From: a virus
Taxonomy: Duplodnaviria; Caudoviricetes
Length of the DNA stretch: 64,000 bases
Reading direction: 5' to 3' (one strand)
IMG/VR virus record: IMGVR_UViG_3300011832_000025
The notes beneath the pieces are model-generated. The model made no database searches, had not been told where the DNA came from, and saw only the letters and a program-made list of their open reading frames with translations. Below are positions 5,417 to 50,275 of the stretch, piece by piece. Both the position numbers and the translations under genes were made by a program. Within the stretch, counting starts at the first letter, position 1; each line of letters begins with the position of its first letter.

Positions 5417-6766
5417 ATGAGCATTGTGTTTCAAGATTCGTTGTCGCGCCAACTTCTGGCCGTTCCCCACGACACCACCACCCCCATTTCGTTTTACGCG
5501 TGCGGCATCACGCCCTATTCTGATGCCCACATTGGCCACGCCCGTTCGTTTGTGGTGTTCGACTTAATGCGCCGCGTACTGGAGACCGATGGCTACACTG
5601 TTAATTTGGTGCGCAATATCACCGACGTGGATGATAAAATTATTGCCCAGGCGGCCGCGCAAAATCGTCATTGGAAAGAGTTGGCGCATTCGTTTGCCGC
5701 CCAAAACCGCCAGTTGATGAGCGAAATGAATGTGGGACACTACGAAGAACCCGCCGCAAGCGAACACATTCCCGACATTATTGATTTGGTGGAACGTTTG
5801 ATTGCAAAGGGTCACGCTTATGTGGGCGAGAATGGGGATGTGTTGTATTCGGTCAAAAGTTTCCAAGGCGCCCCTCTCATGCCGCACGACTTGGACGATT
5901 TGGGCCACAACGGAGCACGAGTGCAACACGATGGCAAGCGCGACAACCATGATTTTGTGTTGTGGAAAGGCGCAAAACCCAACGAACCCTCGTGGCCTTC
6001 GCCGTGGGGCAATGGCCGACCAGGCTGGCATATCGAATGCTCAGCCATGATTGAAAAACGGTTTGGCGCAACCATTGATTATCATGGCGGTGGCACGGAT
6101 TTGCGTTTTCCCCACCACCAAGCGGAAATTCAACAAAGCGAGGCGGCGTACGACCGCCCCTTAGCTCACCGTTGGGTGCACCACGGGTCGGTGCGCGATG
6201 GACGGGGTCAAAAAATGTCCAAATCGTTGGGGAACGTGGTGTTGCTCAAAGACGCGTTGGCCAGCGCCGAATCCCTGGCGCCGGGCGCGGGGGGCGCGGT
6301 GTTGCGCCACGCCTTGCTCAGCGCGTTGTGGACCAAACCATTGGATTATTGGCCCGCCACAACGCTAAAAACTTCTGTGTCCCATCTCACCCAATGGAGC
6401 AAGGCCGCGCAAAAGGGTACTGTGTCCGCGCAGATGAACGAGCGTTTGACGGCCCCCTTGCGCGAAAATCTCAACACACCAAAGTTCTTTGCGCTGTTGC
6501 ATGAATTGAGTTCCGAAGCAAAACGTGGTTCTCAAGACGCCGCCGCGGCGGTATACGAAGGCCTTATTCGTTTGGGCGTGGCTGAAACCGCCATCGCCGC
6601 CCTCAAACACGAAGACGTGGTTGAAACTCCGCAACACATTCAAGATTTGCTCAATCAACGCGAGCAGCACCGACACAACCGTGATTTTGCCCAAGCGGAT
6701 GCGGTGCGTGATCAACTAAAGAAACTTGGATGGGGGGTGCAAGATAAACCACTGAAAATCAAATAA
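5417..6766 (+). CDS. cysS: cysteinyl-tRNA synthetase
   Basis: YACGITPY..HIGH, RNITDVDDKII, DFVLWK, GRPGWHIECSAM, GGGTDLRFPHH, KMSKSLGN. Confidence 0.95.
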   Translation: MSIVFQDSLSRQLLAVPHDTTTPISFYACGITPYSDAHIGHARSFVVFDLMRRVLETDGYTVNLVRNITDVDDKIIAQAAAQNRHWKELAHSFAAQNRQLMSEMNVGHYEEPAASEHIPDIIDLVERLIAKGHAYVGENGDVLYSVKSFQGAPLMPHDLDDLGHNGARVQHDGKRDNHDFVLWKGAKPNEPSWPSPWGNGRPGWHIECSAMIEKRFGATIDYHGGGTDLRFPHHQAEIQQSEAAYDRPLAHRWVHHGSVRDGRGQKMSKSLGNVVLLKDALASAESLAPGAGGAVLRHALLSALWTKPLDYWPATTLKTSVSHLTQWSKAAQKGTVSAQMNERLTAPLRENLNTPKFFALLHELSSEAKRGSQDAAAAVYEGLIRLGVAETAIAALKHEDVVETPQHIQDLLNQREQHRHNRDFAQADAVRDQLKKLGWGVQDKPLKIK

Positions 6767-6767
6767 T

Positions 6768-6790
6768 AAACGGCCTTCGGGCCGTTTTTT
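6768..6790 (+). terminator. rho-independent terminator after cysS
   Basis: aaaCGGCC-ttcg-GGCCGtttttt. Confidence 0.8.
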
Positions 6791-6864
6791 GTTGAATGTT
6801 GCCCACAAAGGTATACAATAAATCAATAAATATTGTCTGTCGCAGACAACCCCAAGGACAAAAG

Positions 6865-7710
6865 ATGAATTACTCTGATACGTTGCCCCGAGTGTACGAA
6901 ATGGAAAATGGATACAATTACAGTGTCCACGCGGTTCCTTTTATTTCCGTACCTGATGCGCAGAAAATTGCGCAAGAAATGCCAAAATTTTCAGCCCAAT
7001 TAAGACCCAAAGCTAAAAAATTGGTGGATCTTCTGACACAGTTTCCCACAATGTCGGTAAATCTTTACGCGCACAATTACTCAATTCCCTCGGAGTACGT
7101 TGATCACTATTGTGTGGTGCAAGCCCGCCCAGAAGGGCGCGAACCGCTTAGCCACAAAAAAACGGACTTGGCTTTTTTGGCGGATCCCACCCAATGGAAG
7201 CTGGAATGCTTAAAACAACTGTGGGATTTGCGCTCCGCCGTCGAAAAGATTAACGACAAATGCAAAATTAAAATCAATATGGCCTGCGTTCAATACGCCA
7301 TGGAATTGTATGAGAAAATAGAAAGCGGTGCGTTGTGTGTTGAAGCGGTGGATATGGGCTCAATGCTTTCCCAGACGGGGTACGCCATATTCAATATCAC
7401 CAATGGGGGGTATGTGAACAGCCAACTAAAGTACGCCTGCGAAACATTGAACAGCGCGGAATTGTTTCCCACAGAAGTGGCCGCGCGCAATTATATCAAC
7501 TCCAAAGCTGATTACGGCTGTCATTACACAATCATTCCGATTGCCATGCAAGCCGGTCCTCATTTGGGGGTGGTGTCCCGAGGCGTGCGCCACGGATCGA
7601 TGGAGCAACGGGACCAAGAGCAGTTGGCGCTTTTGGAAAAAGAGATTTTGGTGGTGAATTTGCCCACTGACAATACGTCGGCGCAAAAAACCAAAAAATC
7701 CAAAATCTAA
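6865..7710 (+). CDS. hypothetical protein, basic C-terminal tail (KKSKI)
   Basis: ORF with RBS aagga before ATG 6865. Confidence 0.7.
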   Translation: MNYSDTLPRVYEMENGYNYSVHAVPFISVPDAQKIAQEMPKFSAQLRPKAKKLVDLLTQFPTMSVNLYAHNYSIPSEYVDHYCVVQARPEGREPLSHKKTDLAFLADPTQWKLECLKQLWDLRSAVEKINDKCKIKINMACVQYAMELYEKIESGALCVEAVDMGSMLSQTGYAIFNITNGGYVNSQLKYACETLNSAELFPTEVAARNYINSKADYGCHYTIIPIAMQAGPHLGVVSRGVRHGSMEQRDQEQLALLEKEILVVNLPTDNTSAQKTKKSKI

Positions 7711-7727
7711 CACACCCCGAGAATTGT

Positions 7728-8936
7728 ATGAGCCAGCGGTTTGAAGACAATATTATCCAAGCGATCACCACTTCCAACGTGGAGTTGTTAAAAGCAACTT
7801 TGGAAAAATCGGACCGAAAGATTGCTTGGAACCAAACGTATGATGGGTTGTCGGTGTTGGCCTTGTGCGTCAAGTTTTTTCATCCAGAGATTGTTAAAAC
7901 CCTGTATCCGTCTTCACAGCAGATCCTTCCCGATGAGGTGTTCACCTATATCATTGAACACGCGCCTCAGGCGGTTGTTGAGGCGTTTGCTGATAATGTC
8001 ATTGCAACACTCAATGAGGAGTTGGATGAAAATAATCTGTGGAACGACGACAATCTTGCCGAACAGGTTCTCAAAACATTGGAGAGATCCACCCCACATA
8101 TTATTCCTCTTATAAACCACTCTTCTTGCAAGGTGATCAAAGAATTACTTGAAAACAAAATTGGGTCACATTTTTTATCGGTGTTGTTGATCAAAGCGGT
8201 TGAGTGGGGCAACGCAAAACTGTTGCACCACGCGCTGGAACAAATTCAACAACAAGATTTAAATCTGTGGCCCCCCTTGGCCTATAAAGATTGGACCACA
8301 GCACATATTCACTGCGTTTACCAAATGTACGCCGCGCAATCCCACCCCGCTCTGAACACATTTCTCGACCAAATGGGAGAGAAGACATGGGGAAACCTTC
8401 AAAAAGCGCACCACACTGTGGCGTTGTACAGTATTCAGGCGTTAAAGCACGTGCTGAACAATGACAACGCCGCCAACACAAATGTGTTTGTTCAAAACGC
8501 GTCCCAAGACGGGTTGCGATTCTTCAGCGATACTGATGTGTTAACCCAGTTGAACGCAAAAGAGTTGAAGCGATTGTTGAGGGCGGGCCAGGGCCGGGTG
8601 ATTGACCACTATAGGTTTTTGTCGACTTCCGTATTGAATTTTGAAATTCCCATTGTTTTGGAACAATACCGACGAATGTGTTTCAGCCCCAACCCAGATC
8701 AAGAGCGACAAATTTTTCAGGAGATGTGCGCGTCGCTGGTGCCCAGCATACCGTACGCATTTCAAGAAAAGCGGATGGATTTGGAAAAATTTTACGGGTC
8801 CATTTATGGAGCACCGCCCAACCAGAGCGTTTCGGTTCTGGATTGTTTAAGTCCCCCCGATCGGGCTTGGGTCGAAAAACGCCTATTGATGGAACACCTT
8901 CCCTGCTCGGTCTCCTCCAAAAAGTCAAAGATTTAA
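7728..8936 (+). CDS. hypothetical helical protein, possibly degenerate ankyrin-like; tail KKSKI
   Basis: 402 aa ORF; LIKAVEWGNAKLL resembles an ankyrin-type helix pair. Confidence 0.65.
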   Translation: MSQRFEDNIIQAITTSNVELLKATLEKSDRKIAWNQTYDGLSVLALCVKFFHPEIVKTLYPSSQQILPDEVFTYIIEHAPQAVVEAFADNVIATLNEELDENNLWNDDNLAEQVLKTLERSTPHIIPLINHSSCKVIKELLENKIGSHFLSVLLIKAVEWGNAKLLHHALEQIQQQDLNLWPPLAYKDWTTAHIHCVYQMYAAQSHPALNTFLDQMGEKTWGNLQKAHHTVALYSIQALKHVLNNDNAANTNVFVQNASQDGLRFFSDTDVLTQLNAKELKRLLRAGQGRVIDHYRFLSTSVLNFEIPIVLEQYRRMCFSPNPDQERQIFQEMCASLVPSIPYAFQEKRMDLEKFYGSIYGAPPNQSVSVLDCLSPPDRAWVEKRLLMEHLPCSVSSKKSKI

Positions 8937-9019
8937 CTTGCAGACAGAATGGCGGCGATTTTTCTTTGCACCCCAAGAAAAACACTGCTATACTACACCC
9001 ATCACTATTGGATTATTTT

Positions 9020-10057
9020 ATGTCTGACCCTAAAACCCTAACCGACTTGCTGGCCCAGTTGCAGCAAACCATTGGTGAAATTCAAGAGCATCACGAATGG
9101 AACGAGATTGACGGCCCCTCGAAGGTGTTTGACGTCGTGTCCGGGCCCATTTTGCCTCTGTTGCACAATTACAAGTGGCGCGAAAAAATTTTGACCGAGA
9201 AAGCTAATCAGGTGTTGGGGAAATCCCCTGGCGTTCATGGATCGGATGGGAAAACGCAACCACAGATGGAATCCAAATCCGCCAAGTTAAAGAGCCGGCT
9301 CATCAACATCGCCGCGGCTATTGGTATGTACGACAAAATTGAATCAAAAGTGGATTCCAATGAAGCGCTGGACACCTCTCCTTTGTTGGATCATTTCAAC
9401 ACCGGTGCGGTGCGGGAAGAGGCCGCCTTAGCACTCATTCAAGCCACCCCGTTGCAAGGAAAGGAGGGGAAAACAGTTATGTTTTCGTCACCCCGCCGTG
9501 CCGCCCGTTTGTTGAAAATTTTGGAAGAGAAATCGGTGTTGGCCCGCGACAAAATGGGGGATCTGGTGTTGGGGGTTAACCCGTGGGTTGCGGTTGAGTG
9601 GCCCCCGACCTTGCTAACTATTGGCGTGGCGCGCTACGAACACAGTGTGTTTGGATTGTTTGGGGCGCAAGAAAAAGCTCTACTGACTGTTTTGTGCGAC
9701 AGCAAAGACATTGAAGAGGTGCTGGGCGATCATTTTGAAAAACGCTTTGGAGAGTACAGAGAACAGATGGATGTCAGGGGCAGCAACCCCAACCATGGCG
9801 CGGCCCCATCCGCCCATGATTCGGTTAAAATTTCGTTAGAGCAGGTGTTGTCTCTGCCCTCCAGTCGGGTTATTCATTTGGATACGGGGGCGCTGTGGAG
9901 CGAAAAAATCAAACTTGATCCCTTGTTGGTTGACAAAATCCAAAAAATGCCCGATCGTCGCACCCAAAAGGGCGTTATTAAACAGCAAATTTCGCGGTAC
10001 GTAACGCAATTTGAGGCCCATGAGCAATCGTTGAAAAACGCTAAAATCAAACCCTAA
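9020..10057 (+). CDS. hypothetical protein, possible PD-(D/E)xK restriction-endonuclease-like fold
   Basis: RE...GSDG..QMESKS resembles D...ExK catalytic spacing; near a DNA MTase. Confidence 0.45.
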   Translation: MSDPKTLTDLLAQLQQTIGEIQEHHEWNEIDGPSKVFDVVSGPILPLLHNYKWREKILTEKANQVLGKSPGVHGSDGKTQPQMESKSAKLKSRLINIAAAIGMYDKIESKVDSNEALDTSPLLDHFNTGAVREEAALALIQATPLQGKEGKTVMFSSPRRAARLLKILEEKSVLARDKMGDLVLGVNPWVAVEWPPTLLTIGVARYEHSVFGLFGAQEKALLTVLCDSKDIEEVLGDHFEKRFGEYREQMDVRGSNPNHGAAPSAHDSVKISLEQVLSLPSSRVIHLDTGALWSEKIKLDPLLVDKIQKMPDRRTQKGVIKQQISRYVTQFEAHEQSLKNAKIKP

Positions 10058-34046: not shown

Positions 34047-34210
34047 GCTGTGCTCCACAAAAGGACGAAGGGATTGTATCCCGTGCGTTTCCCCCCTGTC
34101 AAACCAACCCATGGTTTGATAAACGAGAAACAACTGTATTTTTAACAAAATTTTAACATTTTAAACGCACTTTTTGTGTACGATAAAAGAAATAACCGAG
34201 GATCTTGGCA

Positions 34211-34840: not shown

Positions 34841-34933
34841 GCAGAGGGCAAAACGGCGTTTTATTGAGAATGTCCCCTACCGATCTTACAACGCGGAACC
34901 GTCCCTTGGTTGCTGCACCTCAGGAAAACACGC

Positions 34934-35566: not shown

Positions 35567-35599
35567 GGCAACTCCAAGAGCAACCGTAAGGAACAAGCT

Positions 35600-36226: not shown

Positions 36227-36235
36227 AGGACAGAT

Positions 36236-36889: not shown

Positions 36890-36956
36890 CTAATTTGAAC
36901 CCCGCAACAACACAACACTGCGCGCATTGCGCAAATAAATTCACCGGAGAACATGT

Positions 36957-37649: not shown

Positions 37650-37822
37650 ACCCACTGTAAAGCAGACATTTTCAAATCCAAAGGTGATCTTATTGATCTT
37701 TTGGCGTGTCAAGGGTGAGGTGCTGGTAAATCTCAAAAAAATGGGGCTTGAAAACGGCAAAGCGGACATGGTAAACTCCCCTGTCTGTTATTGCACGACT
37801 TTTCCCATTTTGAGGACCCATC

Positions 37823-38521: not shown

Positions 38522-38530
38522 GGAAAAACA

Positions 38531-39163: not shown

Positions 39164-39237
39164 CCGTCTATCAATTATCACTTAGCTCTATTAAATAGGA
39201 TGTTTCATTCTCTAAAACACTAAGGCAAAGGATCTTT

Positions 39238-39834
39238 ATGTCGTACGAAAAAATCAACGAACTAATAGAACAAGCCCCCGAGGTGTCGCAATGGTGGGCC
39301 TCCAACAAGCGAGCATTAAACTGGTGGTGTGTTGGCAGCATAGCCGTAATTTTTCCAATATTTTTGATGACATTTTTAAGCGTGGCGGCCACTGTCGTGT
39401 GGTCTGGAATGTGGTTGGCCGGACAGGTTCCCGCCGACAAATACTGGATGTTAATTTCTGCACCGTTGGTGTCCTTGTGTGGTATAGGTGTAATAAAATT
39501 TGGTCGCAAATTTCGGCCAAAACGCTTCACATACAAAGGTTTTACCTTAGCAAGATTTGCTGAATCTGAGAGTGTGTCGCTCGCGTTTACCCACAATGTT
39601 TTAAGCAAAGCTGTCAATCTCGGGGATCCCCAGATCAAGCCCATTTTGGCAAAATTGCACGCCCTCAAAAACACCGATTTGCCCAAATGTTGGTGGCAAT
39701 CCCTGGGTAAAGAATTAGACAAACACGCCCGTCCCCCGGTGAACACAAGCGCGCAAGAACAGTTGGAAGCGGTGTATGTCCAAATGGAAGACCTGTCCGT
39801 TGACCAACCCACCCCCAAAGTGTTCCGTCTGTAA
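39238..39834 (+). CDS. 2-TM membrane protein, LPxxWW family
   Basis: APEVSQWW...DLPKCWW; tail VFRL. Confidence 0.75.
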   Translation: MSYEKINELIEQAPEVSQWWASNKRALNWWCVGSIAVIFPIFLMTFLSVAATVVWSGMWLAGQVPADKYWMLISAPLVSLCGIGVIKFGRKFRPKRFTYKGFTLARFAESESVSLAFTHNVLSKAVNLGDPQIKPILAKLHALKNTDLPKCWWQSLGKELDKHARPPVNTSAQEQLEAVYVQMEDLSVDQPTPKVFRL

Positions 39835-39846
39835 GGGAAAATAAGT

Positions 39847-40467
39847 ATGGAAAATCTCGAGAAAATGTTGGCCAACGCTCCCCAAGTGGCTCAGTGGTGG
39901 GAAACACATCGAAAAACAATTGAAGTTTACTTGAAACGCACAGTAAAAAGAGAACGGCGTATAAACACATGGATGGTGTGTTTGGCGTCGGTTGGGTCGG
40001 TGGCATATCTGCCGTACATAGCTGGGGTGTTCTCCCCCGGCCTCATCAATGACTTCGCTCTAACAATGTTGGAGTTGTGTGTGGTGATTGGCTTGGGTGG
40101 GTTTTTTGGCGCATGGGGCGCAGCAACAGTCATTGAACGTCGCAGCCAAGCTTCCCTCGCCCACCACTACAAACAAGCTGACCCATGTTGGCGGCTTGTT
40201 CCCAGCCGTGAGCGGCAAGAATTTTCTCAAGACGACCGTGCAAAAATGGTCAAGGAACTGAGTGATTTGGGGGTAAACCCTCACCACATTGTTGCGCTGC
40301 GCGATTTGGATCTCCCCAATTCCTGGTGGCACGCGATCAACGAAGAAGTGGGCCGCGCCAAACAGGAACAAAAACAGACAGCCCAATCCGCTCCGACTTT
40401 AGAAGAGGTGTTTGTTCAAGTAGAGAACCACGCCAAAATCCCCACAACACATGTATTGCGTCTTTAA
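39847..40467 (+). CDS. 2-TM membrane protein, LPxxWW family
   Basis: APQVAQWW...DLPNSWW; tail VLRL. Confidence 0.75.
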   Translation: MENLEKMLANAPQVAQWWETHRKTIEVYLKRTVKRERRINTWMVCLASVGSVAYLPYIAGVFSPGLINDFALTMLELCVVIGLGGFFGAWGAATVIERRSQASLAHHYKQADPCWRLVPSRERQEFSQDDRAKMVKELSDLGVNPHHIVALRDLDLPNSWWHAINEEVGRAKQEQKQTAQSAPTLEEVFVQVENHAKIPTTHVLRL

Positions 40468-40485
40468 TTTTAAAAGGAAAAACCC

Positions 40486-41076
40486 ATGACAATTGAAACC
40501 ATTCAAAAAATGATCAGCGACGCGCCCGCGGCGTCCAAATGGTGGGGTCAACACCACTTCAAAATCGTGCGCAGTAAAAAAATACGCGCGTGGGTCTCTT
40601 GTGTGTTCGCAGTGGGGACGGTGGGCTCCATCCTGGGGTTTTTGTTTGAAGACGATCCCCTTCTCTCAATGCTGTATTTGGTGGGGGTGATTGGGTTGAT
40701 GGTGGCGGGAATAGTGTGCGAAGAGTTCATTTCCAAGGAATACCGCCGCGGTTTAAACATGTTGCATTTGTTCTACCTGAGAAATTTGGAAATTCCGGCC
40801 ACCAGCGAGCACCAAGAGCCGGTGTTTCGTGTGCTGTTGAAAACCCAAAGCAAAACCCTTCAACAGTGCGGCAAAGATCTGCTGGCGTTACGCAACGCTC
40901 CATTGCCCGCTGTGTGGTGGGTGGCGCTGCACGAACACATTGAAGCGGTGATCGCTCAAGACAAGCAAGAAGCGATGTGGGCGGGTTTGTCTCAGCAAAT
41001 TGAGCAAGCGGGCTCTTCCCTCTCCCAAAGCGAAAAAGGCGGAGAAAATTATGAATGGGTCAGCGATCAGCCATGA
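40486..41076 (+). CDS. 2-TM membrane protein, LPxxWW family
   Basis: MTIETIQKM (as in 38531)...LPAVWW. Confidence 0.75.
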   Translation: MTIETIQKMISDAPAASKWWGQHHFKIVRSKKIRAWVSCVFAVGTVGSILGFLFEDDPLLSMLYLVGVIGLMVAGIVCEEFISKEYRRGLNMLHLFYLRNLEIPATSEHQEPVFRVLLKTQSKTLQQCGKDLLALRNAPLPAVWWVALHEHIEAVIAQDKQEAMWAGLSQQIEQAGSSLSQSEKGGENYEWVSDQP

Positions 41077-41639
41077 ACAAATCCCTTGAAAGAATGAGAG
41101 AACTGTTGCAAAGCGCCCACGCCACCTCAGTGTGGTGGCAAAAAAACAAAAAATCCGCCCAACGGTTTGCGTTGTGGCGGAGCACTTTGGGAGCCGCTTG
41201 GCACTTCATAACGTTTGTTCTGGCCATGAGCGGGTATCTCTGGCTCAGCGTGTCCTCCTCAGGTGTTTTGGTGGATGGCGTGAAAATAGCGGCGTTTTCC
41301 CTCGTCGTCGCGCTGTGGGTGATTGTATGCATTAAAGCTTCTCATCGGTTTGACCGGTATATGTTCCAACGGTTTGAGGAAGGGTGCGCGTTGTGCGGTT
41401 TCGATTATATGTTGGAAGGCACCGTGTTTTTATCGGAGAACAAATTTACCCCGCAAAAACAAGAGGACGATGTGGTCAACAATGTCTTGCGCGCTGTAAA
41501 CACTATGGAGCTTGCAGAGGTTCAACATCTGCGGCCCCATCTGGAACAGTTGCGCACCACAGATTTGCCTCGATCGTGGTGGTATCATATGCAAACGGCG
41601 GTGAAAGATGTACAGAACTCCGCTAAAACAAATCGATGA
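41073..41639 (+). CDS. 2-TM membrane protein, LPxxWW family
   Basis: EVQHLR...DLPRSWW; closest to 34934. Confidence 0.75.
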   Translation: MNKSLERMRELLQSAHATSVWWQKNKKSAQRFALWRSTLGAAWHFITFVLAMSGYLWLSVSSSGVLVDGVKIAAFSLVVALWVIVCIKASHRFDRYMFQRFEEGCALCGFDYMLEGTVFLSENKFTPQKQEDDVVNNVLRAVNTMELAEVQHLRPHLEQLRTTDLPRSWWYHMQTAVKDVQNSAKTNR

Positions 41640-41732
41640 ATTCCCATGCGCGGTGGGGGAAACCGGATCACCCCAAAAAATCCCGCGGTTTAAATTTGTA
41701 GAGAAAAACGCGCTCAGAGCACAGGAAAAATT

Positions 41733-42323
41733 ATGGACACCCCAACCGATCAACGCAACCCCCTTCAACCCTTTTTGTCCCAGCATCTGGCCGCCGGTCA
41801 GCGTCGGAGCTTTTGGTTGGGTGTGTTTCAAAAATGCCGGATGGTAGCGGGATTTTTTCCATTTTGGGTGGTGATACTGACAAGCATGGTTTGCACGGTG
41901 TTGAATAAGAGCTGGGGAATGGGTGTTATGCCAGCCGCGGGGGTGGCTTTCTTTTTTGTGCTTGTTCCAAGCGTCGTGATGAAATTGAAGTACATTGATT
42001 TTTGGAAAAAGTGGAGCGAAAAACACGGGTATGTTTTTAACGAAGACGCCGGTCAGTTTAAGCCAATCCTGGAACCGGTGGACGCCAATCATATTAACAC
42101 CGTGTACCAATTGTTTGGCCAATTGCCCAGCACGGTGGAAAACATGGTGCTGGAAAAACAATTGCGCAAACTCAAAAAAGCCAACCGCCTGCCCCAGCGC
42201 TGGTGGGACGAGTTGGCCGCGCGTTTGCGCACGCATCTTGCCCCCCAAGAGGAAGTGGAGGTGGAACACATTGAAGAGGCACCGCCCCCAGCGGAAAATT
42301 CGTCTTCTTTGTTGCGCTTGTAA
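41733..42323 (+). CDS. 2-TM membrane protein, LPxxWW family
   Basis: RLPQRWW; tail LLRL. Confidence 0.75.
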   Translation: MDTPTDQRNPLQPFLSQHLAAGQRRSFWLGVFQKCRMVAGFFPFWVVILTSMVCTVLNKSWGMGVMPAAGVAFFFVLVPSVVMKLKYIDFWKKWSEKHGYVFNEDAGQFKPILEPVDANHINTVYQLFGQLPSTVENMVLEKQLRKLKKANRLPQRWWDELAARLRTHLAPQEEVEVEHIEEAPPPAENSSSLLRL

Positions 42324-42815: not shown

Positions 42816-42823
42816 GAAAAGAA

Positions 42824-43374: not shown

Positions 43375-43403
43375 TTGACAAAGAATTTTAAACCCGATAG
43401 CAT
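43375..43403 (+). promoter_or_regulatory. sigma70-type promoter upstream of leader ORF and tRNA array
   Basis: TTGACA-17 nt-TAGCAT. Confidence 0.7.
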
Positions 43404-43487: not shown

Positions 43488-43664
43488 ATGTTCACCGTTT
43501 CCGCCACCGCTACTTCTGCAAGCCGCTCGGCTTCGGGCGTGGCTGCGCGCGCTTCGGGTGCCTTGGTTAAGACCAACGCCTTCGCTGGTGCTGGCTTCGG
43601 CTGGAACCATAATATTCATAATATTTGGGCCTTCGGGACCCTGCGAACAGGTGCGTGTGTGTAA
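43488..43664 (+). CDS. 58-aa leader peptide ORF (not in ORF track)
   Basis: RBS aaagga; MFTVSATATSASRSASGVAARASGALVKTNAFAGAGFGWNHNIHNIWAFGTLRTGACV*. Confidence 0.65.
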   Translation: MFTVSATATSASRSASGVAARASGALVKTNAFAGAGFGWNHNIHNIWAFGTLRTGACV

Positions 43665-43722
43665 GGCTTAGCCAAACCATACAAATGTTCAAAGGGTCCC
43701 AGAAATGGGACCCTTTTGTTTT
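43632..43722 (+). promoter_or_regulatory. attenuator: antiterminator strand (43632-43649) and intrinsic terminator (43691-43722)
   Basis: TTCGGGACCCTGCGAACA pairs with TGTTCAAAGGGTCCCAGAA, mutually exclusive with AAAGGGTCCC-agaaat-GGGACCCTTT-tgtttt. Confidence 0.7.
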
Positions 43723-44152: not shown

Positions 44153-44229
44153 GGACCCGATAGTTTAATTGGCAAAACGTTCCCACTTTATAGGGAAAGA
44201 CATTGGTTCGAAACCATTTTGGGTCCCCA
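44153..44229 (+). tRNA. atypical tRNA: G-1/C73 (His-like), 8-nt anticodon loop ACTTTATA (possible UUA anticodon)
   Basis: GACCCGA/TTGGGTC acceptor, TTCCC/GGGAA stem, TTCGAAA T-loop, encoded CCA. Confidence 0.7.
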
Positions 44230-44288
44230 AAGATAAAAAAGTTAATCGGTGAGATAATAAAAAGTTTATCGTTGAAAGGTAATAATTT

Positions 44289-44363
44289 GATCGCATAGCT
44301 CAGAGGCAGAGCAACTCCCTGTTAAGGAGTGGGTCGTAGGTTCAATCCCTACTGTGATCGCCA
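44289..44363 (+). tRNA. tRNA-Asn(GTT)
   Basis: Canonical cloverleaf, loop CT-GTT-AA, CCA. Confidence 0.92.
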
Positions 44364-44386
44364 AATTGTAAGCAAAAAAAGTTTAT

Positions 44387-44467
44387 GGACGGTTGGCTGA
44401 GTGGTTTAAGCAACGGACTGTTAATCCGTGGAGAAATCCAACGTAGGTTCGATACCTACACCGTCCG
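44387..44467 (+). tRNA. tRNA with GTT (Asn) anticodon on a class II body (long variable arm); no encoded CCA
   Basis: GGACGGT/ACCGTCC, ACGGA-CT-GTT-AA-TCCGT, V-arm GGAGAAATCCAAC. Confidence 0.85.
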
Positions 44468-44547
44468 AAATTTTCTCAAGTTATTGAAATTGTTGATTTT
44501 TTGTATTGATTTTGTTATACTCCGGAAACAAAATTTTGGGATATATT

Positions 44548-45666
44548 ATGTACAAGAAAATCAAAGAAATTGATATTGAAGAAATCAAAATTGCTATAAG
44601 TAAAACTGTTTCAAAAAGACAAGCAATTGAATTATTAAATTGTAATACGCAGCGTGTAGCCAACTTTCATGCTTTAAATTTTTTAATTGTTAAACATAAG
44701 ATCAATATTGAACATTATGATCCAATGTATAAATACAACAAAATTCCAGATTTCATTAAAATGTCTTACAGCTTGGTTGATGTGGCAAAAAATGTCTGTT
44801 TGGTAAATGACGATGTTTCTAAAATTAGTGCCCGACTTTGCAAAAATATCAAAAAGTACATCAATGAAAACAATTTGGACACATCACATTTTCGTCATTC
44901 TTCTAAAGTCGGGTATAATGTTACACGAACAAACGAAGAAGTTTTTGCTAAAAACAGTGATGTTTCACAATCTACTGTGAAGAAGCGTTTTATAGCAAAG
45001 GTTAAATATGAGTGTGCAGTTTGTGGTGTAGCAAGTTGGAATAACGCTCACTTATCGCTTCAGTTGGATCATATTGATGGTGATAATCAAAACAATCTGA
45101 TAACTAATTTGCGACTTTTATGCCCCAATTGCCATTCCCAAACGGAAAATTTTGGTAGTAAAAATAAAACATTCAAGTTACACAAAAAATCAAATGTAAA
45201 CGATAAAGTTGATTTTACGAGTAAGGCTGTAAAAAAAGACCGTACAAAAAAAGTTAAAGATTTGTTTATTTCAGATAAAGATTTGTTTATTTCAGATAAA
45301 GAAAGGCGTCAATCGCGAGCAGATAAAATTTTGAAAACTTTGAAATCGTCTTCAATCGATTTTTCAAAACACGGTTGGGCAACTCCAGCAAGCAAAATTA
45401 TTGGAGTAGGTCATCAACATGTGGCGCGTTGGATGCGAATGTATGCGGCTGATTTTTATAAGGAGAAGTGTTTTATAAGGAAACCAATGGTTGATTTGGT
45501 TAAAAATTGGAAGGAAGATAAATGTAAAATTAAAAAATGTGAATTTAAAACTATCCTGGCAATGAAAGATAGAGGTTATTCGATAAATAAAATAGCGAAG
45601 AAATACGGAGTGCATCATTCTAGCGTACAAAAAATTTTAAAAACAATTGACACACAAAATAAATAA
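44548..45666 (+). CDS. HNH homing-type endonuclease with C-terminal HTH
   Basis: CAVCG...LQLDHIDGDNQNNLITNLRLLCPNCHSQT; low GC; internal 21-nt tandem duplication (KDLFISD x2). Confidence 0.9.
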   Translation: MYKKIKEIDIEEIKIAISKTVSKRQAIELLNCNTQRVANFHALNFLIVKHKINIEHYDPMYKYNKIPDFIKMSYSLVDVAKNVCLVNDDVSKISARLCKNIKKYINENNLDTSHFRHSSKVGYNVTRTNEEVFAKNSDVSQSTVKKRFIAKVKYECAVCGVASWNNAHLSLQLDHIDGDNQNNLITNLRLLCPNCHSQTENFGSKNKTFKLHKKSNVNDKVDFTSKAVKKDRTKKVKDLFISDKDLFISDKERRQSRADKILKTLKSSSIDFSKHGWATPASKIIGVGHQHVARWMRMYAADFYKEKCFIRKPMVDLVKNWKEDKCKIKKCEFKTILAMKDRGYSINKIAKKYGVHHSSVQKILKTIDTQNK

Positions 45667-45687
45667 TGTAACGTACAAAAATTAAAT

Positions 45688-45763
45688 GCGGGAGTAGCTC
45701 AATTGGTAGAGCGTCGCCTTGCCAAGGCGAAGGTTGCGGAATCGTCCTCCGTCTCCCGCTCCA
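45688..45763 (+). tRNA. tRNA-Gly(GCC), non-canonical T-loop ATCGTCC
   Basis: GCGGGAG/CTCCCGC, loop TT-GCC-AA, T73-CCA. Confidence 0.9.
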
Positions 45764-45771
45764 TTTAAAAT

Positions 45772-45848
45772 GCTTCCTTAGTTCAGTTGGTTAGAACATC
45801 TGATTGTTAATCAGAGGGTCCCCCGTTCGAGTCGGGGAGGAAGCGCCA
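45772..45848 (+). tRNA. tRNA-Asn(GTT)
   Basis: GCTTCCT/AGGAAGC, TCTGA-TT-GTT-AA-TCAGA, CCA. Confidence 0.92.
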
Positions 45849-45991
45849 TCTTCGGGCTGCAAGCGTGTAAGTCGGTGACAACACTGCGTTGAAAACGTAC
45901 TTAGTGAAAGGCTAAGAGGCCAACCAATTTTTCATCCAGACGCTTTCCACAGCGTCTTTCTTTTTTCAAACAGTAGGTCGGTTTTGTAGCT

Positions 45992-46105
45992 TGTGTTGAC
46001 GCGCTGTACTGGCTGAAAGATGTTGGCGCATGTTACGACGAAGTCGTGGCATAAGCCACAACATCGCCACATGCTCAATGCTAACCCATTGTCAACGCAC
46101 ACCAC
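45992..46105 (+). repeat. structured hairpin element, long form, free-standing copy
   Basis: TGTGTTGACGCG...CATTGTCAACGCACACCAC; nearly identical to 49151-49263. Confidence 0.85.
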
Positions 46106-46264
46106 TTTTAGAGGTCTAACAAGTAGCACCGGCTTTGGTCACCGCGATGCACCTCTCGACGTTATTCGGTGTTGTAATGTAAGACCACCACCCGCAAAAA
46201 GAGCGGGCTCTTCCTTTTGCCGCTTGAAGGTGGTATTATCCGCTCGGTCTCAAAGGGGTTGCTT

Positions 46265-46855
46265 ATGAATATTATTGCAAAATTGAACGAGAAGTTGTCA
46301 AAATACACGTCTCCCAAGGTCAATTGGTTGACGAAAAGACCGTGGTTGCTCCAAGTGGTGGGAACAACCTTGTCTTTACTGACTTTGGGGGTGTCCTTGG
46401 CGCTTTTCACGCCCTTTCTCATGTCATCGTATACGTTTTTCGTGTCGACGTTAATTGTAATATTTGGCTTTATCATGGTGCCCCTTCCATCAGCGGTTGT
46501 ATTTTGGCTGTTTGGAAAACACCAAACGCCTCAACGGGAAAAGGTTGTTGAAAAATACACCAATCTTATTCTTAAGAATTTTGCGGAAAGTGAATATTAT
46601 GATATGAAAATTGGGTTGCTAAAAATTCTCAACAATGAACCGTACACGCCTGTGTATTTCTTGGACGAAATGGTTCGATTGAAGGAAATTGCTGATCAGC
46701 AAAGACAAAGAAAAAAAGATGAAAACTCCGTAGCTGTCAATGACTCGTCAACATTGACCGTTTTAATTGAACAAATGGAACAAGATCAAACCGCCAGCCA
46801 GGCTGCAAAAAACGAGATGCGCGAACAGAAATTGAAAAATGTGTTCAAGTTATAA
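46265..46855 (+). CDS. 2-TM membrane protein, possible distant LPxxWW-family member; tail VFKL
   Basis: Two TM segments, similar length and tail. Confidence 0.65.
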   Translation: MNIIAKLNEKLSKYTSPKVNWLTKRPWLLQVVGTTLSLLTLGVSLALFTPFLMSSYTFFVSTLIVIFGFIMVPLPSAVVFWLFGKHQTPQREKVVEKYTNLILKNFAESEYYDMKIGLLKILNNEPYTPVYFLDEMVRLKEIADQQRQRKKDENSVAVNDSSTLTVLIEQMEQDQTASQAAKNEMREQKLKNVFKL

Positions 46856-46891
46856 AAAAAAAGAGGGGTAAACCCCTCTTTTTTGTTGAAC

Positions 46892-47248
46892 TCAACCAAG
46901 TGCTTCAAGTTCTTCCAGTGTGATTTTGCTGGCGGTCATATCGCGTGCAACGGGCGCAATTTTGTGGGTGGCCACAGCGTTGGCGAACGCCTGATAATTT
47001 CCCAAGTAATCGCAGGATTCATAGTCGGGGTCTGCATCCTCCATGACATAGTAGAAATTTTCGTACACACTGTAACGCAGATCCTCCACATTCACGCCCG
47101 CCAGATTGGCTATTTCCTTGCGCTGGACAGTGTGGAACACAACATCGGTGTAATCGGCGTGGTGGGTGGTGTCATAATACTGACCGTCCACAAAAATCGA
47201 CCAGTAGTTTTCATCACTGATCATTACAAGTTCAACGTGACCTTTCAT
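46892..47248 (-). CDS. hypothetical acidic protein
   Basis: RBS gggag; convergent terminator at about 46861-46884. Confidence 0.65.
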   Translation of the reverse strand: MKGHVELVMISDENYWSIFVDGQYYDTTHHADYTDVVFHTVQRKEIANLAGVNVEDLRYSVYENFYYVMEDADPDYESCDYLGNYQAFANAVATHKIAPVARDMTASKITLEELEALG

Positions 47249-47347
47249 GCAGTTCTCCCAAGTTGTGAATGGGGGAAGTATACCACAGGAATTGGGGGAA
47301 AGTGTTAAAAGGATGAAAGTTTTGGAAGGCGTTTAAGTAACAGATAT

Positions 47348-47423
47348 ACTTCGGTAGCTCAATTGGTGGAGCAAAACTCTGATAAAGTTTAGGTTACGGG
47401 TTCGAGTCCCGTCTGAAGTACCA
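47348..47423 (+). tRNA. tRNA-Ile(GAT)
   Basis: ACTTCGG/CTGAAGT, AAACT-CT-GAT-AA-AGTTT, CCA. Confidence 0.9.
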
Positions 47424-47437
47424 AATTGTAATTCTAT

Positions 47438-47573
47438 GGTGATCGTGGCGGGAGTGTGTTGACGCGGTGTATTGGCTTATGCCAATACGAGTATTGTCAA
47501 CGCACACCACGATGTAAACGCACCTGATTGTGAGTCAGGTTTTTTGAGGGTTCAAGTCCCTTCGACCACCCCA
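47438..47573 (+). tRNA. tRNA-His(GTG) with about 60-nt hairpin insert in the D-loop (about 47454-47512)
   Basis: G-1/C73, CCTGA-TT-GTG-AG-TCAGG, T-arm, CCA; one acceptor mismatch. Confidence 0.8.
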
Positions 47574-47582
47574 TTTTTTTAT

Positions 47583-47658
47583 ACCACGGTAGCTCAATTG
47601 GTAGAGCTCTCGGTCGATAACCGAGTGGTCATAGATTCAAATCCTATCCGTGGTACCA
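47583..47658 (+). tRNA. tRNA-Ile(GAT) with C33
   Basis: CTCGG-TC-GAT-AA-CCGAG, CCA. Confidence 0.88.
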
Positions 47659-47663
47659 AATAT

Positions 47664-47740
47664 ACGTCGGTAGCTCAATCGGCAGAGCACTCCCGCAAAT
47701 AAGGGAAAGGTTGTAGGTTCAACTCCTACCTGGCGTGCCA
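47664..47740 (+). tRNA. atypical tRNA with 8-nt anticodon loop GCAAATAA, isotype undetermined
   Basis: ACGTCGG/CTGGCGT-G-CCA; intact D and T arms; TCCC/GGGA stem. Confidence 0.7.
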
Positions 47741-47754
47741 AATTGTAATTCTAT

Positions 47755-47892
47755 GGTGGTCGTGGCGGGAGTGTGTTGACGCGGTGTATTGGCTTATGCC
47801 AATGCTAACGCATTGTCAACGCACACCACGATGTAAACGCACCTGATTGTGAGTCAGGCTTTTTGAGGGTTCAAGTCCCTTCGACCACCCCA
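47755..47892 (+). tRNA. tRNA-His(GTG) with about 60-nt hairpin insert in the D-loop (about 47771-47831)
   Basis: Duplicate of 47438 with perfect acceptor stem. Confidence 0.8.
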
Positions 47893-47902
47893 TTGTTTTT
47901 AT

Positions 47903-47978
47903 ACCACGGTAGCTCAGTTGGTAGAGCTCTCGGTCGATAACCGAGTGGTCATAGGTTCAAATCCTATCCGTGGTACCA
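47903..47978 (+). tRNA. tRNA-Ile(GAT) with C33
   Basis: Duplicate of 47583. Confidence 0.88.
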
Positions 47979-48042
47979 ATATATTGATTTGTAAGTGTAT
48001 TTTATGCTATTATGCGTAATCTTTTACGAGGTGCATAAAATT

Positions 48043-48973
48043 ATGAAGGTTAATCAAGAGCGTGTTAATCAAGCTATTGAATTACGTCGTCAAGGAAAAA
48101 CGTTTGACGAAATAAAGTCTATAATGGGAGCAGATAAAGGGACTTTAAGGAAATGGTTTTCATCTGTAGTTTTTACTCCGGAAGAAACTCTCTTGATAAA
48201 TCAAAATATAGTGTCTCGACGTACAAATCGTTTAAACAAACCTTTGCCACCTGAAAATAAAAAAATAAAAGGCCTGGCTCCAACCGCAAAAAACTATACC
48301 AAATATCTGCAGGCTATTGAATTTCGAAAAAACGGTTGCGGATTAGACGATATAGCGAAGCGCTTGGGTGTTGCTAAGAGTTCGGTTTCACTTTGGGTGC
48401 GGCATATTCAATTAAATGAATATCAAAAAAGGTGTTTAATCGGTTGTGAGCCTGGAAAGATTTCACCTGCCCGGCAAAAAGCCGTTGAGGCGAACCGAAA
48501 AAAATATGCGGATCTGCGTAATACCGCGCGCCAACAAGGTTATGATGAGGCGTTGGGCGATCCAGTGCATGTTGCAGGGTGTATGTTGTATTGGGCTGAA
48601 GGTACTAAATCAATAAATAAGGTTGAATTTTCAAACACCGACGCATCTATGCAGAAAAAATTCAAAAAGTTTCTTGAACATCTCGGAGTTCCTTCTGAAA
48701 AAATAAAATTTTATACGCGTGTCCATAACACAGAAGAAAATGGAACCCACGAAGAATGCAAAAACTTTTGGGCGGAAAAACTAAATATATCCAAGAGTCA
48801 AATCAAAGTGTATGACGCAAAAGATGAAAGATGCTCGTGGAGATAGCAAGACCAAGTCACGCTACCCGTTTGGTGTCGGCCGTCTTGAGGTCCATGACTA
48901 CACAATCATTCAACGCATCTATGGTGGTATCGAGCGCTACATTGGTGAAGAAATTCCATATGGTCGGAAATAA
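48043..48973 (+). pseudogene. HTH plus LAGLIDADG-like homing endonuclease gene, frameshifted by a 7-nt duplication
   Basis: HTH (IAKRLGVAKSSVSLW), LYWAEG, FSNTD; AAAGATG x2 at 48820-48833; removing one copy restores frame to ...YPFGVGRLEV...GRK*. Confidence 0.7.
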
Positions 48974-48997
48974 AGTAAATGTTTTTAAATGTTCTAT

Positions 48998-49083
48998 GGT
49001 GAGCGTGGCGAAATTGGTAGACGTACCGGATTGTGATTCCGGTGCCGCAAGGCGTGAGGGTTCAAGTCCCTTCGTTCACCCCA
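48998..49083 (+). tRNA. tRNA with GTG (His) anticodon and G-1/C73 on a Leu-like class II body
   Basis: D region GGCGAAATTGGTAGACG, V-arm TGCCGCAAGGCGT, CCA. Confidence 0.85.
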
Positions 49084-49124
49084 TATTGTTTGAATTTGAA
49101 TGCGTCAGATGTGGTTGTGTTTTA

Positions 49125-49311
49125 CGGACGTTAGCTCAGTTGGTAGAGCATGTGTTGACGCGATGTATTGGCTTAAAAGATGTTGGCGCATGTTATGACG
49201 AAGTCGTGGCATAAGCCACAACATCGCAACATGCTCAATGCACGCATTGTCAACGCACATCGCGTTCTCTTAACCAGTAGGTCGAAGGTTCGAACCCTTC
49301 ACGTCCCACCA
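49125..49311 (+). tRNA. tRNA-Lys(CTT) interrupted by long-form hairpin element (about 49151-49263) in the 5' anticodon stem; may be non-functional
   Basis: GGACGT/ACGTCC, GCTCAGTTGGTAGAGC, CT-CTT-AA-CCAGT, T-arm, CCA. Confidence 0.7.
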
Positions 49312-49368
49312 AAAGTTTGACTTCCTTGGTGTTTGACCTAAAATAAGACAAACACCATAAGGATTTTT

Positions 49369-49971
49369 ATGACCGAAGATATTCTCAAAAACGTTAATGA
49401 CGCAAAAAGTAAAAAAGAAAAATTGCAGCGTGTTGCGGCACGGACAGGTTTGGGTGCAGCATGTGTTTGGCTGGCGGGGGCATTCATGTCGGTCTCAGCT
49501 GTAACGACAGTGGGGGTCGTGACATTGTGCGCGGCGCAACTGGCAAAAGAATTTTTCGAGCAGAAAGGCCGACGTGATGTGATGCTCAAGCAACGGAACA
49601 TTGCCCAACAATTCGGAACTCCCAACGATGTTGATACCATCAATCAAGCGTTGGACAGTGACGCAAAACAAAACGCGCTGGGCAACAAAATGGCAACCGC
49701 CACTGTATTGATTGCCAGCGCCATTGGCTTGTCTCCGTTTTTGGTTGCATCAAACCCCCCTTCAGGTGTTTTCGTCGGAACCATCATTGTTGGAGCGTTT
49801 GCCGGACTGCGCGCCGCACGCGCTATTGAGAAAAAAGAGCAATCCGACATTCGTTTTTATGGGGTTCAACCCATTGTTGCCGAAAATGTCGTGTCGTCCA
49901 TTTTAAAAGAGCGCGGCATACAAGAAGGTGGAAAAATCGATCTCAAACCATCGCGCATCAAAATGAAGTAA
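49369..49971 (+). CDS. hypothetical membrane protein (two pairs of hydrophobic helices)
   Basis: RBS aagga; architecture like 4558 and 20486; tail RIKMK. Confidence 0.7.
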   Translation: MTEDILKNVNDAKSKKEKLQRVAARTGLGAACVWLAGAFMSVSAVTTVGVVTLCAAQLAKEFFEQKGRRDVMLKQRNIAQQFGTPNDVDTINQALDSDAKQNALGNKMATATVLIASAIGLSPFLVASNPPSGVFVGTIIVGAFAGLRAARAIEKKEQSDIRFYGVQPIVAENVVSSILKERGIQEGGKIDLKPSRIKMK

Positions 49972-50097
49972 TCAGGCAACACATCAGATACAAAAAAAAA
50001 GGCCATTCGTTGAGTGGCTTTTTTGTGTGTGAAATTTAATATTTTAACCCCTTATGTTCTACCATTTTTTATGTGTCCAGTTGTGTTGTAAATATAC

Positions 50098-50175
50098 GCG
50101 TCAATAGCTCAATTCAGGCAGAGCAAAATTCTCCAAAAATTTAGGTTGGGGGTTCGAGTCCCTCTTGGCGCGCCA
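50098..50175 (+). tRNA. tRNA-Trp(CCA) with all-AU anticodon stem
   Basis: AAATT-CT-CCA-AA-AATTT, G73-CCA. Confidence 0.88.
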
Positions 50176-50204
50176 AGTCATTGTTTTTGTTATATTTTTT
50201 TAAT

Positions 50205-50275
50205 ACGTCGTTCGTCCAAGGGTAGGACCCCTGACTCCAAATCAGGTAATGAGAGTTCGAATCTTTCACGGCGTG
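50205..50275 (+). tRNA. tRNA-Trp(CCA) with Glu/Gln-type D-arm; no encoded CCA
   Basis: ACGTCGT/ACGGCGT, GTCC/GGAC D-stem, CCTGA-CT-CCA-AA-TCAGG. Confidence 0.85.

Follow-up and report, generated by a model that had tools for sequence, protein, structure and literature searches.

We analysed a 64,000-nt stretch of DNA from the IMG/VR virus record IMGVR_UViG_3300011832_000025 (hereafter the window, to which all feature coordinates refer). Its positions 5417-50275 encode cysteinyl-tRNA synthetase (CysRS), a short paralog of release factor 1 (RF1) interrupted by an in-frame TGA, the release factor PrfH, MYG1, two nucleotidyltransferases and, behind a leader with the features of a transcription attenuator, an array of tRNA-like genes (Table 1). 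The original prediction, which covered the same range, had read these parts as one dispersed counter-defence system against ribotoxins that carries two independent translation-sensing switches, namely the attenuated tRNA array and the interrupted RF1-like gene. Based on profile searches, structure models and comparison with relatives, CysRS, the RF1-like factor with its in-frame TGA, PrfH, MYG1 and an array of 15 tRNA-like genes behind a putative attenuator were all recovered. The two switches proved to be the best-supported claim, with comparative support for both; the sensor role of the RF1-like gene is putative.

The window has approximately 49% G+C (48.7%) and is gene-dense, with the plus strand predominating and with no family match for the majority of its gene products. 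Three related lineages were compared with it: L002-L004 (PrfH 97% identical), L007/L008 (61%) and L005/L006 (60%). For the attenuator and the tRNA array, the sole informative relative is L195, which is of the L005 type; the walk along the L008-type contig stopped within an array of membrane-protein paralogs, short of any tRNA array.

Approximately 650 nt upstream of the first tRNA gene, a promoter-like site, a Shine-Dalgarno (SD) sequence with its ATG, a leader open reading frame (ORF) and an intrinsic terminator follow one another in this order. Leader codons 38 to 47 spell G-W-N-H-N-I-H-N-I-W, and all ten are read by tRNAs of the array (Gly-GCC, Trp-CCA, Asn-GUU, His-GUG and Ile-GAU). Across window genes, 16.6% of all codons belong to the nine that the array reads. 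By chance, ten of them in a row should turn up 0.002 times over all six frames, and the window has no second stretch of seven or longer. Downstream of the codon run, an alternative antiterminator fold (-32.2 kcal/mol, z -4.1) is possible between GGGACCCT and AGGGTCCC, which forms the 5′ arm of the terminator. In the fold of the full-length leader, the terminator forms and GGGACCCT is paired to upstream leader sequence. The antiterminator and terminator helices are predicted to be mutually exclusive, which corresponds to the 1:2 / 2:3 / 3:4 scheme known from trp and his attenuators.

L195 keeps identical promoter hexamers at the homologous place, a homologous leader N-terminus and the same terminator, and the variable middle of its leader is respelled with many Phe, Glu, Asn, His and Trp codons. 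Lys is written as AAG and Thr as ACT, the codons read by the CTT and AGT anticodons of L195 itself. Altogether, 40 of the 74 leader codons are decoded by its own tRNAs, including a run of 13, against a background of 30%. Ile codons and Ile tRNAs are present in the window; neither occurs in the variable part of L195, within the reach of the locus. The antiterminator strand reads GGGACCC in the window and GGAACCC in L195, and the 5′ arm of the terminator reads GGGTCCC and GGGTTCC, respectively. With this paired change, the helix between leader and terminator arm stays Watson-Crick and the terminator pair becomes G.U. The covariation amounts to one compensatory pair change in a comparison of two sequences, and it is predicted to favour antiterminator pairing. 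We regard the respelled leader and the compensatory change as the decisive observations and, based on them, consider that there is good evidence for a functional attenuator that would sense the reading speed of the codons served by the array.

According to the mechanism that we propose, a scarcity of charged tRNAs would stall ribosomes at the Gly, Trp, Asn, His and Ile codons of the leader. The GGGACCCT strand would then pair with the 5′ arm of the terminator, transcription would enter the tRNA genes, and the read-through product would be exactly those tRNAs that were scarce. The leader resembles trpL, hisL, the ilv leaders and pheL (for which a leader-peptide attenuator is described in PMC3082878) in its short translated ORF with a regulatory codon run, and the trpL/hisL-type attenuators in its exclusive antiterminator and terminator helices and its intrinsic terminator. 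Those attenuators control biosynthetic enzymes or aminoacyl-tRNA synthetases, whereas tRNAs and homing-endonuclease-like ORFs lie downstream of this one, and the regulatory codons are those read by the controlled tRNAs themselves. Additionally, the present leader is multivalent (five to eight amino acids) and is respelled together with the tRNA set in the relative. We found no published description of leader-peptide attenuation governing tRNA genes.

ARAGORN and Rfam agree on 12 genes of the array: three for tRNA-Asn, three for tRNA-Ile, two for tRNA-Trp, one each for tRNA-Gly and tRNA-His, and two with 8-nt anticodon loops. Two extra tRNA-His genes were recovered once a D-loop insert of approximately 60 nt was deleted. 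A tRNA-Lys(CTT) gene, in which a 113-nt insert breaks the anticodon stem, was identified through an intact tRNA-Lys homolog in a relative. No tRNA-Cys gene was found in the array, along which the G+C content drops to 36-45%. The isotype counts that the original prediction had called redundant are right, but part of the redundancy is the product of a recent tandem duplication of 319 bp (an interrupted tRNA-His plus a tRNA-Ile), the copies of which are 95-98% identical. Divergent tRNA bodies for one anticodon also occur. At the syntenic position, L195 has at least 19 tRNAs (Trp, two His, seven Glu, three Phe, Lys-CTT, Thr-AGT, Met, three Asn and Gly) and one interrupted gene, and its array includes an HTH (helix-turn-helix) gene as well. 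One tRNA-Asn (45772-45848) is 98.7% identical to L195:20407-20483, though the proteins of the two elements are approximately 60% identical; the remaining tRNAs of the two arrays are barely alignable.

The array leaves the commonest codons of the element (TTG, AAA, GAA, CAA and GTG) unserved, a finding that speaks against simple codon compensation; in the codon usage of the element, Asn, His, Ile, Trp and Gly account for 1.9-5.4% each. The simple alternative that had been set against the original prediction, in which the tRNA set mirrors the codon bias of the element, was therefore rejected on window codon usage.

The two tRNA-like genes with 8-nt anticodon loops (ACTTTATA and GCAAATAA) have normal arms and an encoded CCA, and they score 45-46 bits with the Rfam tRNA model, against 51-70 bits for the other tRNAs. 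A small structured insert with the ends TGTGTTGACGCG ... TTGTCAACGCACA and inner hairpins is present in four copies in the window (45992-46105, ~47454-47512, ~47771-47831 and 49151-49263). Two copies lie in tRNA-His D-loops, one lies in the tRNA-Lys anticodon stem and one is free-standing; the long forms have a common 66-nt core that is 97% identical. In the relative, a different insert lies within another tRNA (L195:19324-19447).

When its single in-frame TGA is read through, the product of the RF1-like gene aligns to the part of RF1 that begins near residue 110 and reaches its C-terminus, with 168 bits for prfA and 97 bits for prfB. It remains below the cut-offs of canonical RF1 (prfA, TIGR00019; 160-168 bits, cut-offs 400-423), and its match to this profile starts at position 106-114, with domain 1 missing. 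The GGQ residues G126, G127 and Q128 are invariant (alignment A2), and the PxT tripeptide is replaced by PPN in the window. The third residue of this tripeptide is often N, G, S or H in UGA-interrupted relatives, whereas full-length forms mostly have PPT.

In the alignment with E. coli RF1, the TGA falls on the Trp of the RRW motif. Among the 120 best cluster representatives, 40 of the 41 full-length ones have Trp at the TGA position, and every one of the 79 truncated gene calls starts after position 36. Four lineages were checked directly (L002, L007/L008, L108 and L109/L110), and all have the TGA at the same place. L108 is a 1.23-Mb bacterial contig with 58.6% G+C, as against 48.7% in the window; its RF1-like gene, which is 62% identical, has chemotaxis, FtsH and XseA genes as neighbours. 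L109, on which gp13 and gp15 homologs occur, is a T4-like phage contig; its UGA-interrupted short RF1 gene (L109:9863-10732; 57% identical) is directly followed by two tRNA-Thr genes. Between the window and L007, 15% of the bases of the gene differ, with 67 synonymous versus 23 nonsynonymous codon changes; upstream of the TGA these numbers are eight and two, and the codons flanking the stop are identical. At 90% identity, the RF1-like factor is the best-conserved protein of the segment (26-83% for the others). Taken together, these data indicate that the TGA at a conserved Trp position is retained under purifying selection in distant lineages. Approximately two thirds of the members of the short RF1 family seem to depend on readthrough of a UGA where a conserved Trp codon would stand.

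Several other explanations of the TGA were considered. A pseudogene is ruled out by purifying selection and by the conservation of the TGA across lineages. A genetic code with TGA as Trp is likewise ruled out, because TGA terminates 26 of the 74 window ORFs and the code is thus standard. Selenocysteine is excluded by the sequence following the UGA, which is unconserved across lineages, and by the Trp of the intact relatives. A +1 frameshift is unsupported, since the homology continues in the zero frame. We consider that the UGA is most likely read as Trp. Either C or A follows the stop, and both make UGA a weak termination context in E. coli. The bases before it are AAAGGT, AAGGGT, GAGGGT or GTCGGC in the four lineages, with no consistent SD sequence. 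The second tRNA-Trp(CCA) gene of the array (50204-50276) does not encode the CCA end, and its D-stem contains a U11-A24 pair, which we take to be the pair made by the Hirsh UGA-suppressor mutation of E. coli tRNA-Trp; this tRNA is a lead for the reader of the UGA in the RF1-like gene.

In the model that these observations suggest, ribosomes would have to decode codon 36, the UGA, with Trp as the most likely residue, before any full-length short RF1 is made, and its output should rise where RF2-dependent UGA termination is weak. The output of the gene may in this way report RF2 activity. The prfB gene, which encodes RF2, offers the closest parallel: it is likewise a class-I release factor gene with an early in-frame UGA, at codon 26, and bypass of the UGA should likewise depend on the efficiency of termination. 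In prfB the bypass is a +1 frameshift (autoregulatory recoding is reviewed in PMC5009743), whereas here it would be zero-frame readthrough of a UGA that stands in place of a conserved Trp. The product also differs, being RF1-like, without domain 1 and with an altered PxT motif.

PrfH was identified by the equivalog model TIGR03072 / IPR017509 (212.9 bits, cut-off 166.65, profile positions 1-200). It keeps G118, G119, Q120 and the other invariant residues of the family (alignment A1), its homologs are all 200-206 residues long, and by sequence it belongs to the short EcPrfH type, which lacks domain 1. PrfH releases peptides from ribosomes with 16S rRNA cut in the decoding centre (PMC9304027, PMC9223846), and in E. 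coli ATCC 25922 it is part of the RtcB2-PrfH ribosome rescue and repair module (PMC9304027, PMC9223846, PMC1586002). The window protein shares with that module the short PrfH of approximately 200 residues, the GGQ and the family invariants. The two arrangements differ in the partner of PrfH, which is RtcB in the module and a metallopeptidase-like protein plus a membrane protein here, with MYG1 near and on a giant mobile element. RtcB gave zero Pfam matches among the approximately 70 window ORFs and was not found among the called genes within 10 kb of PrfH in the relatives; no other RNA ligase was found among the window ORFs. PrfH would be expressed from an operon in which the metallopeptidase and the membrane protein take the place of RtcB, with MYG1 adjacent, and such an arrangement would mean rescue without RNA religation.

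In two lineages (L002-L004 and L007/L008), a 466-471-residue protein and a 193-residue membrane protein precede PrfH; in the third (L005 type), a 602-residue homolog of the 471-residue protein does so. The HEAAH and NEMFADTYG motifs are invariant in 11 homologs of this protein, and a search of 5.8 billion proteins returned only nine homologs, all on contigs of the relatives. Its AlphaFold2 (AF2) model has a mean predicted local distance difference test score (pLDDT) of 75 and a predicted template modelling score (pTM) of 0.76. In VIA-align, its best structural matches are zinc metallopeptidases throughout, headed by dipeptidyl peptidase III (Z 9.3) and including M1, M48, M3, M13 and thermolysin; Foldseek against the Protein Data Bank (PDB) gave no significant match with the same model. 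We predict that this protein is a new gluzincin-like metallopeptidase, with HExxH, a downstream NExxxD-type glutamate and a zincin fold. A basic tail is conserved in the relatives (alignment A3, columns 601-623) and shortened to GKKK in the window copy. The conserved protein of approximately 174 residues (82% identical in L007, 60% in L005) and MYG1 (77% and 69% identical, respectively, and syntenic) come after PrfH in all lineages, the former always between PrfH and MYG1. In one lineage, the L005 type, a 338-residue protein with only the catalytic domain of glutamyl- or glutaminyl-tRNA synthetase, possibly GluQRS-like, is encoded between PrfH and the 174-residue protein (L005:10782-11798, equal to L194:17069-18085).

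The two nucleotidyltransferases are paralogs with 36% identity over 406 residues, and their long C-terminal halves are unrelated to each other; L005 has three such paralogs. The family comprises 653 homologs at E up to 0.001, with the invariant residues G28, G32, D53, D55, D152, N154, R196 and K200, of which D53, D55 and D152 were invariant in 58 sequences. The AF2 model of the N-terminal 260 residues has a pLDDT of 87.8. Foldseek ranks 1 to 13 in the PDB were CCA-adding or tRNA nucleotidyltransferases (E about 1e-4, probability 1.0), and many viral nucleotidyltransferases matched in BFVD. The Atlas feature search gave 0.96-0.97 to Gad2/PolyA_pol-head clusters, in which 50-64% of the members have Pfam Gad2, and the family is 92-100% viral in Atlas. 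Pfam and PDB sequence searches were blank. PolyA_pol (PF01743) matched neither protein even at E up to 5, PolyA_pol_RNAbd matched neither, and Gad2 (PF26128) gave no match in the local Pfam, a copy that may not include that model. Of the two CCA/poly(A)-like enzymes in the original prediction, the resemblance to CCA enzymes holds, on the evidence of the models, for fold and catalytic motif. A tRNA-repair role is not indicated, and the nearest named family is Gad2, an anti-Gabija protein of SPbeta-like phages of approximately 400 residues that is a predicted nucleotidyltransferase, Gabija being a DNA-targeting defence (10.1101/2023.05.01.538930). Gad2 and class II CCA-adding enzymes have the same head fold and the same DxD plus D catalytic residues as the window proteins, which differ from Gad2 in their length of 640-670 residues with long unrelated C-terminal halves. 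CysRS, which is 74% identical and syntenic in L005, and the two Gad2-like nucleotidyltransferases would complete the translation-upkeep set.

Table 1. Features of the segment, with coordinates in the 64,000-nt window
Feature	Coordinates	Strand	Evidence or remark
CysRS, full length	5417-6766	+	TIGR00435 380.8 bits (cut-off 340); PF01406 340 bits
RF1-like paralog, 234 codons	16410-17114	-	PCRF and RF-1 domains; domain 1 absent
In-frame TGA, codon 36, the only one	17007-17009	-	In RF1-like gene
Gluzincin-like metallopeptidase (predicted), 471 aa	19074-20489	+	First operon gene; motifs, AF2 model
Predicted membrane protein, 193 aa	20486-21067	+	Start overlaps protease stop (ATGA)
PrfH, 202 aa	21128-21736	+	TIGR03072; mechanical ORF start 21071
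Conserved protein, ~174 aa	21749-22297	-	Between PrfH and MYG1; weak ankyrin signal
MYG1/UPF0160, putative 3′-5′ RNA exonuclease	22423-23475	+	PF03690 125.4 bits (cut-off 22.1)
Nucleotidyltransferase, 671 aa	29375-31390	-	Class-II-CCA-enzyme-like head; Gad2-like family
Nucleotidyltransferase paralog, 642 aa	31414-33342	-	Near-identical NTase motif block
Sigma-70-type promoter-like site TTGACA-17-TAGCAT	43375-43403	+	10/12 matches
Leader ORF, 58 codons	43488-43664	+	SD AAAGGA, then ATG at 43488
Regulatory run GGC TGG AAC CAT AAT ATT CAT AAT ATT TGG	43599-43628	+
Antiterminator strand GGGACCCT (predicted)	43635-43642	+
Intrinsic terminator, 11-bp stem and T-run	43691-43716	+	5′ arm alternatively pairs with 43635-43642
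tRNA array, 15 tRNA-like genes	44154-50276	+	ARAGORN, Rfam, insert deletion, homology
tRNA-like, 8-nt anticodon loops	44154-44229, 47664-47740	+
tRNA-Asn	44289, 44386 (long variable arm), 45772	+
HNH and HTH homing-endonuclease-like gene inside array	44506-45666	+	Pfam HNH, HTH_23
tRNA-Gly	45688	+
tRNA-Ile	47348, 47583, 47903	+
tRNA-His, interrupted (two)	47438-47573, 47755-47892	+
Further HTH genes	47995-48846, 50341-51738
tRNA-His, intact	48999	+
tRNA-Lys(CTT), interrupted	49125-49311	+
tRNA-Trp	50098, 50204	+

The PELOTA-type domain of the original prediction was not found in 5417-50275 by Pfam. The sole PELOTA_1 match in the window (51.4 bits) lies outside this range, at 1-675, where it is fused to StiP. 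This fusion of a StiP cysteine-protease domain with PELOTA_1 is followed by a C-C bond lyase with a TIM-barrel fold, and the cluster (1-1625) is presumably of the Ter-stress type.

Considering the relatives, the order across lineages is CysRS, methylase, RF1-like factor, protease-like protein, membrane protein, PrfH, 174-residue protein, MYG1, GDSL lipase, nucleotidyltransferase paralogs and membrane-protein paralogs. By exact protein match, the window CysRS was traced to a Logan contig. PrfH homologs with 57-97% identity lie on metagenomic contigs of up to 366 kb, and the next-closest PrfH proteins are from marine gamma-proteobacteria (at most 52% identity). PrfH-based scans of IMG/VR gave solely distant PrfH-like genes (at most 45% identity), and searches of named-phage proteins with the RF1-like, PrfH and nucleotidyltransferase queries gave distant matches only. 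The segment DNA had nothing similar in named phage and plasmid collections, and nine family-less window proteins had zero PHROG matches. The segment is probably a conserved part of a very large element of at least 300 kb. We call this element probably phage-like, an indirect label based on the largely viral nucleotidyltransferase family and the homing-endonuclease-like genes among the tRNAs.

Other observations concern the neighbouring genes. The ORFs 7728-8936 and 8678-10057 overlap by approximately 260 nt on the same strand, which may reflect a frameshift or a wrongly placed start, and L007 has a match to the second (65% identical). An IS605-type OrfB/TnpB pair lies between the genes for a 138-residue and the protease-like protein in a relative (L002:6104-7814) and is not in the window. 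Twelve tandem paralogs of approximately 200 residues (34205-42323; pairwise identity 20-42%) have one or two membrane segments, a conserved LPxxWW-type motif and a basic C-terminal tail ending in L or I, and this array is likewise expanded in relatives (L192:8484-20509). Eight to nine consecutive ankyrin-repeat genes occupy 51846-58580 and 61035-61808, and ankyrin genes flank the RF1-like gene in the bacterial contig L108 too. A short basic tail with a hydrophobic residue (e.g., KKxKM, KKxKL or LRL) ends many unrelated window proteins.

We lean towards reading these parts as independent translation-upkeep modules rather than as one integrated system. They are spread over 45 kb on both strands, each with its own signals, among a methylase, a lipase, an outer-membrane protein and the 12 membrane paralogs. 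The lipase, methylase and outer-membrane protein are equally co-conserved in the relatives, and the co-occurrence of the parts, which the original prediction had expected, appears from these comparisons to be indistinguishable from conservation of the whole segment. It is this scatter and general synteny, together with one lineage in which the RF1-like gene is missing from the examined sequence, that lead us to independent modules. Taken together, the modules would help the element to withstand tRNA loss, failed termination and damaged ribosomes, the source of which may be host defence nucleases or the element's own takeover of the cell.

Several observations weigh against functional modules of a phage-like element. 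No RF1-like gene was found in the approximately 39 kb examined of an L005-type relative, and PrfH without RtcB cannot repair rRNA. The conservation of the attenuator is documented in a single relative, and terminator-like sites inside the array may limit how far read-through extends. With three of the 15 tRNA genes interrupted and two with 8-nt loops, the array may be partly non-functional. Additionally, no capsid, terminase or replication genes were seen across the approximately 100 kb examined.

Huge phages commonly carry tRNAs, aminoacyl-tRNA synthetases and release factors, and the set might reflect the ordinary translational self-sufficiency of such a phage, with capacity for its own codon and amino-acid usage late in infection and an attenuator that only adjusts supply to demand, unconnected with damage or defence. 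Canonical RF1 genes are indeed present in phage records of 600-735 kb, phage tRNA regions typically include HNH and HTH genes, and the logic of the leader is demand-driven, which makes a nuclease unnecessary. We nevertheless hold this explanation to be unlikely: the array misses the most used codons of the element, the role of PrfH is damage-specific (PMC9304027), and the conserved UGA within a release-factor gene would be left unexplained.

The single counter-defence system of the original prediction would act against ribotoxins of the colicin E3/E5 and PrrC types through tRNA replacement, rescue, end repair and two sensors; this reading is unsupported and unlikely. In its favour, Asn and His species with a GUN anticodon, the class that colicin E5 cuts, account for six of the 15 tRNAs, and a single anticodon can be served by divergent tRNA bodies. 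Cleavage of tRNAs would be expected to trigger the attenuator, and the parts are conserved together in the relatives. PrfH responds specifically to cleavage of the decoding centre (PMC9304027), and no other part has an established link to ribotoxin damage. The dispersal of the genes, with unrelated genes between them, does not fit a single system, and the co-conservation extends to the lipase, methylase and outer-membrane protein as general synteny. Neither RtcB nor another RNA ligase was found among the window ORFs, the nucleotidyltransferases are nearest to Gad2, a counter to a DNA-targeting defence (10.1101/2023.05.01.538930), the PELOTA domain is in a different cluster, and the array of L195 is dominated by Glu and Phe tRNAs, which are not known ribotoxin targets.

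For the tRNA array taken by itself, a counter-defence role is plausible by analogy, since phage tRNAs are reported to counter tRNA-cleaving defences (PMC10264068, PMC11464382, PMC11555353). As in those phages, several divergent copies occur per anticodon, including Asn, His and Lys. The present array differs in that its expression is apparently gated by a sensor of decoding speed, in that three of its genes carry a small structured insert and in that no nuclease partner can be named.

A more ambitious interpretation, to which we give little weight, is a layered surveillance of host translation by three detectors, each with a matching remedy. Stalling on the codon-matched leader would detect tRNA loss. 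A short RF1 whose stop recognition is relaxed would, through readthrough of its conserved UGA, detect termination failure of the RF2 type, and PrfH with its dedicated protease would detect damage of the decoding centre. The UGA-gated RF1 family without domain 1, widespread in phages and some bacteria, would then be a new class, a self-gated backup factor for release or rescue.

It is very improbable that the segment belongs to a bacterial chromosome or to an island in decay, with housekeeping CysRS and tRNAs and with the interrupted RF1-like and tRNA genes as pseudogenes: the RF1-like gene beside chemotaxis, FtsH and XseA genes in the bacterial contig, the lack of phage hallmark genes in the sequence examined and the three interrupted tRNAs would fit, but purifying selection acts strongly on the RF1-like gene both before and after a TGA common to distant lineages, nearly all neighbouring proteins are without a family, the 471-residue protein is confined to the contigs of the relatives, the nucleotidyltransferase family is almost wholly viral and the bacterial contig differs in G+C content.

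Under the reading of independent modules, leader attenuation, the UGA-gated RF1 and the pairing of PrfH with a protease are each worthwhile without a single anti-ribotoxin system. The short RF1 paralogs are a large uncharacterised family and, if the UGA acts as proposed, theirs would be the second release-factor gene, after prfB, to be gated by termination efficiency. The uncoupling of PrfH from RtcB and its coupling to a new predicted metallopeptidase raise the question of what rescue without repair achieves. If the attenuator functions as suggested, tRNA genes under trp-operon-style attenuation would constitute a direct sensor of tRNA availability, which would explain how large phages decide when to make tRNAs.

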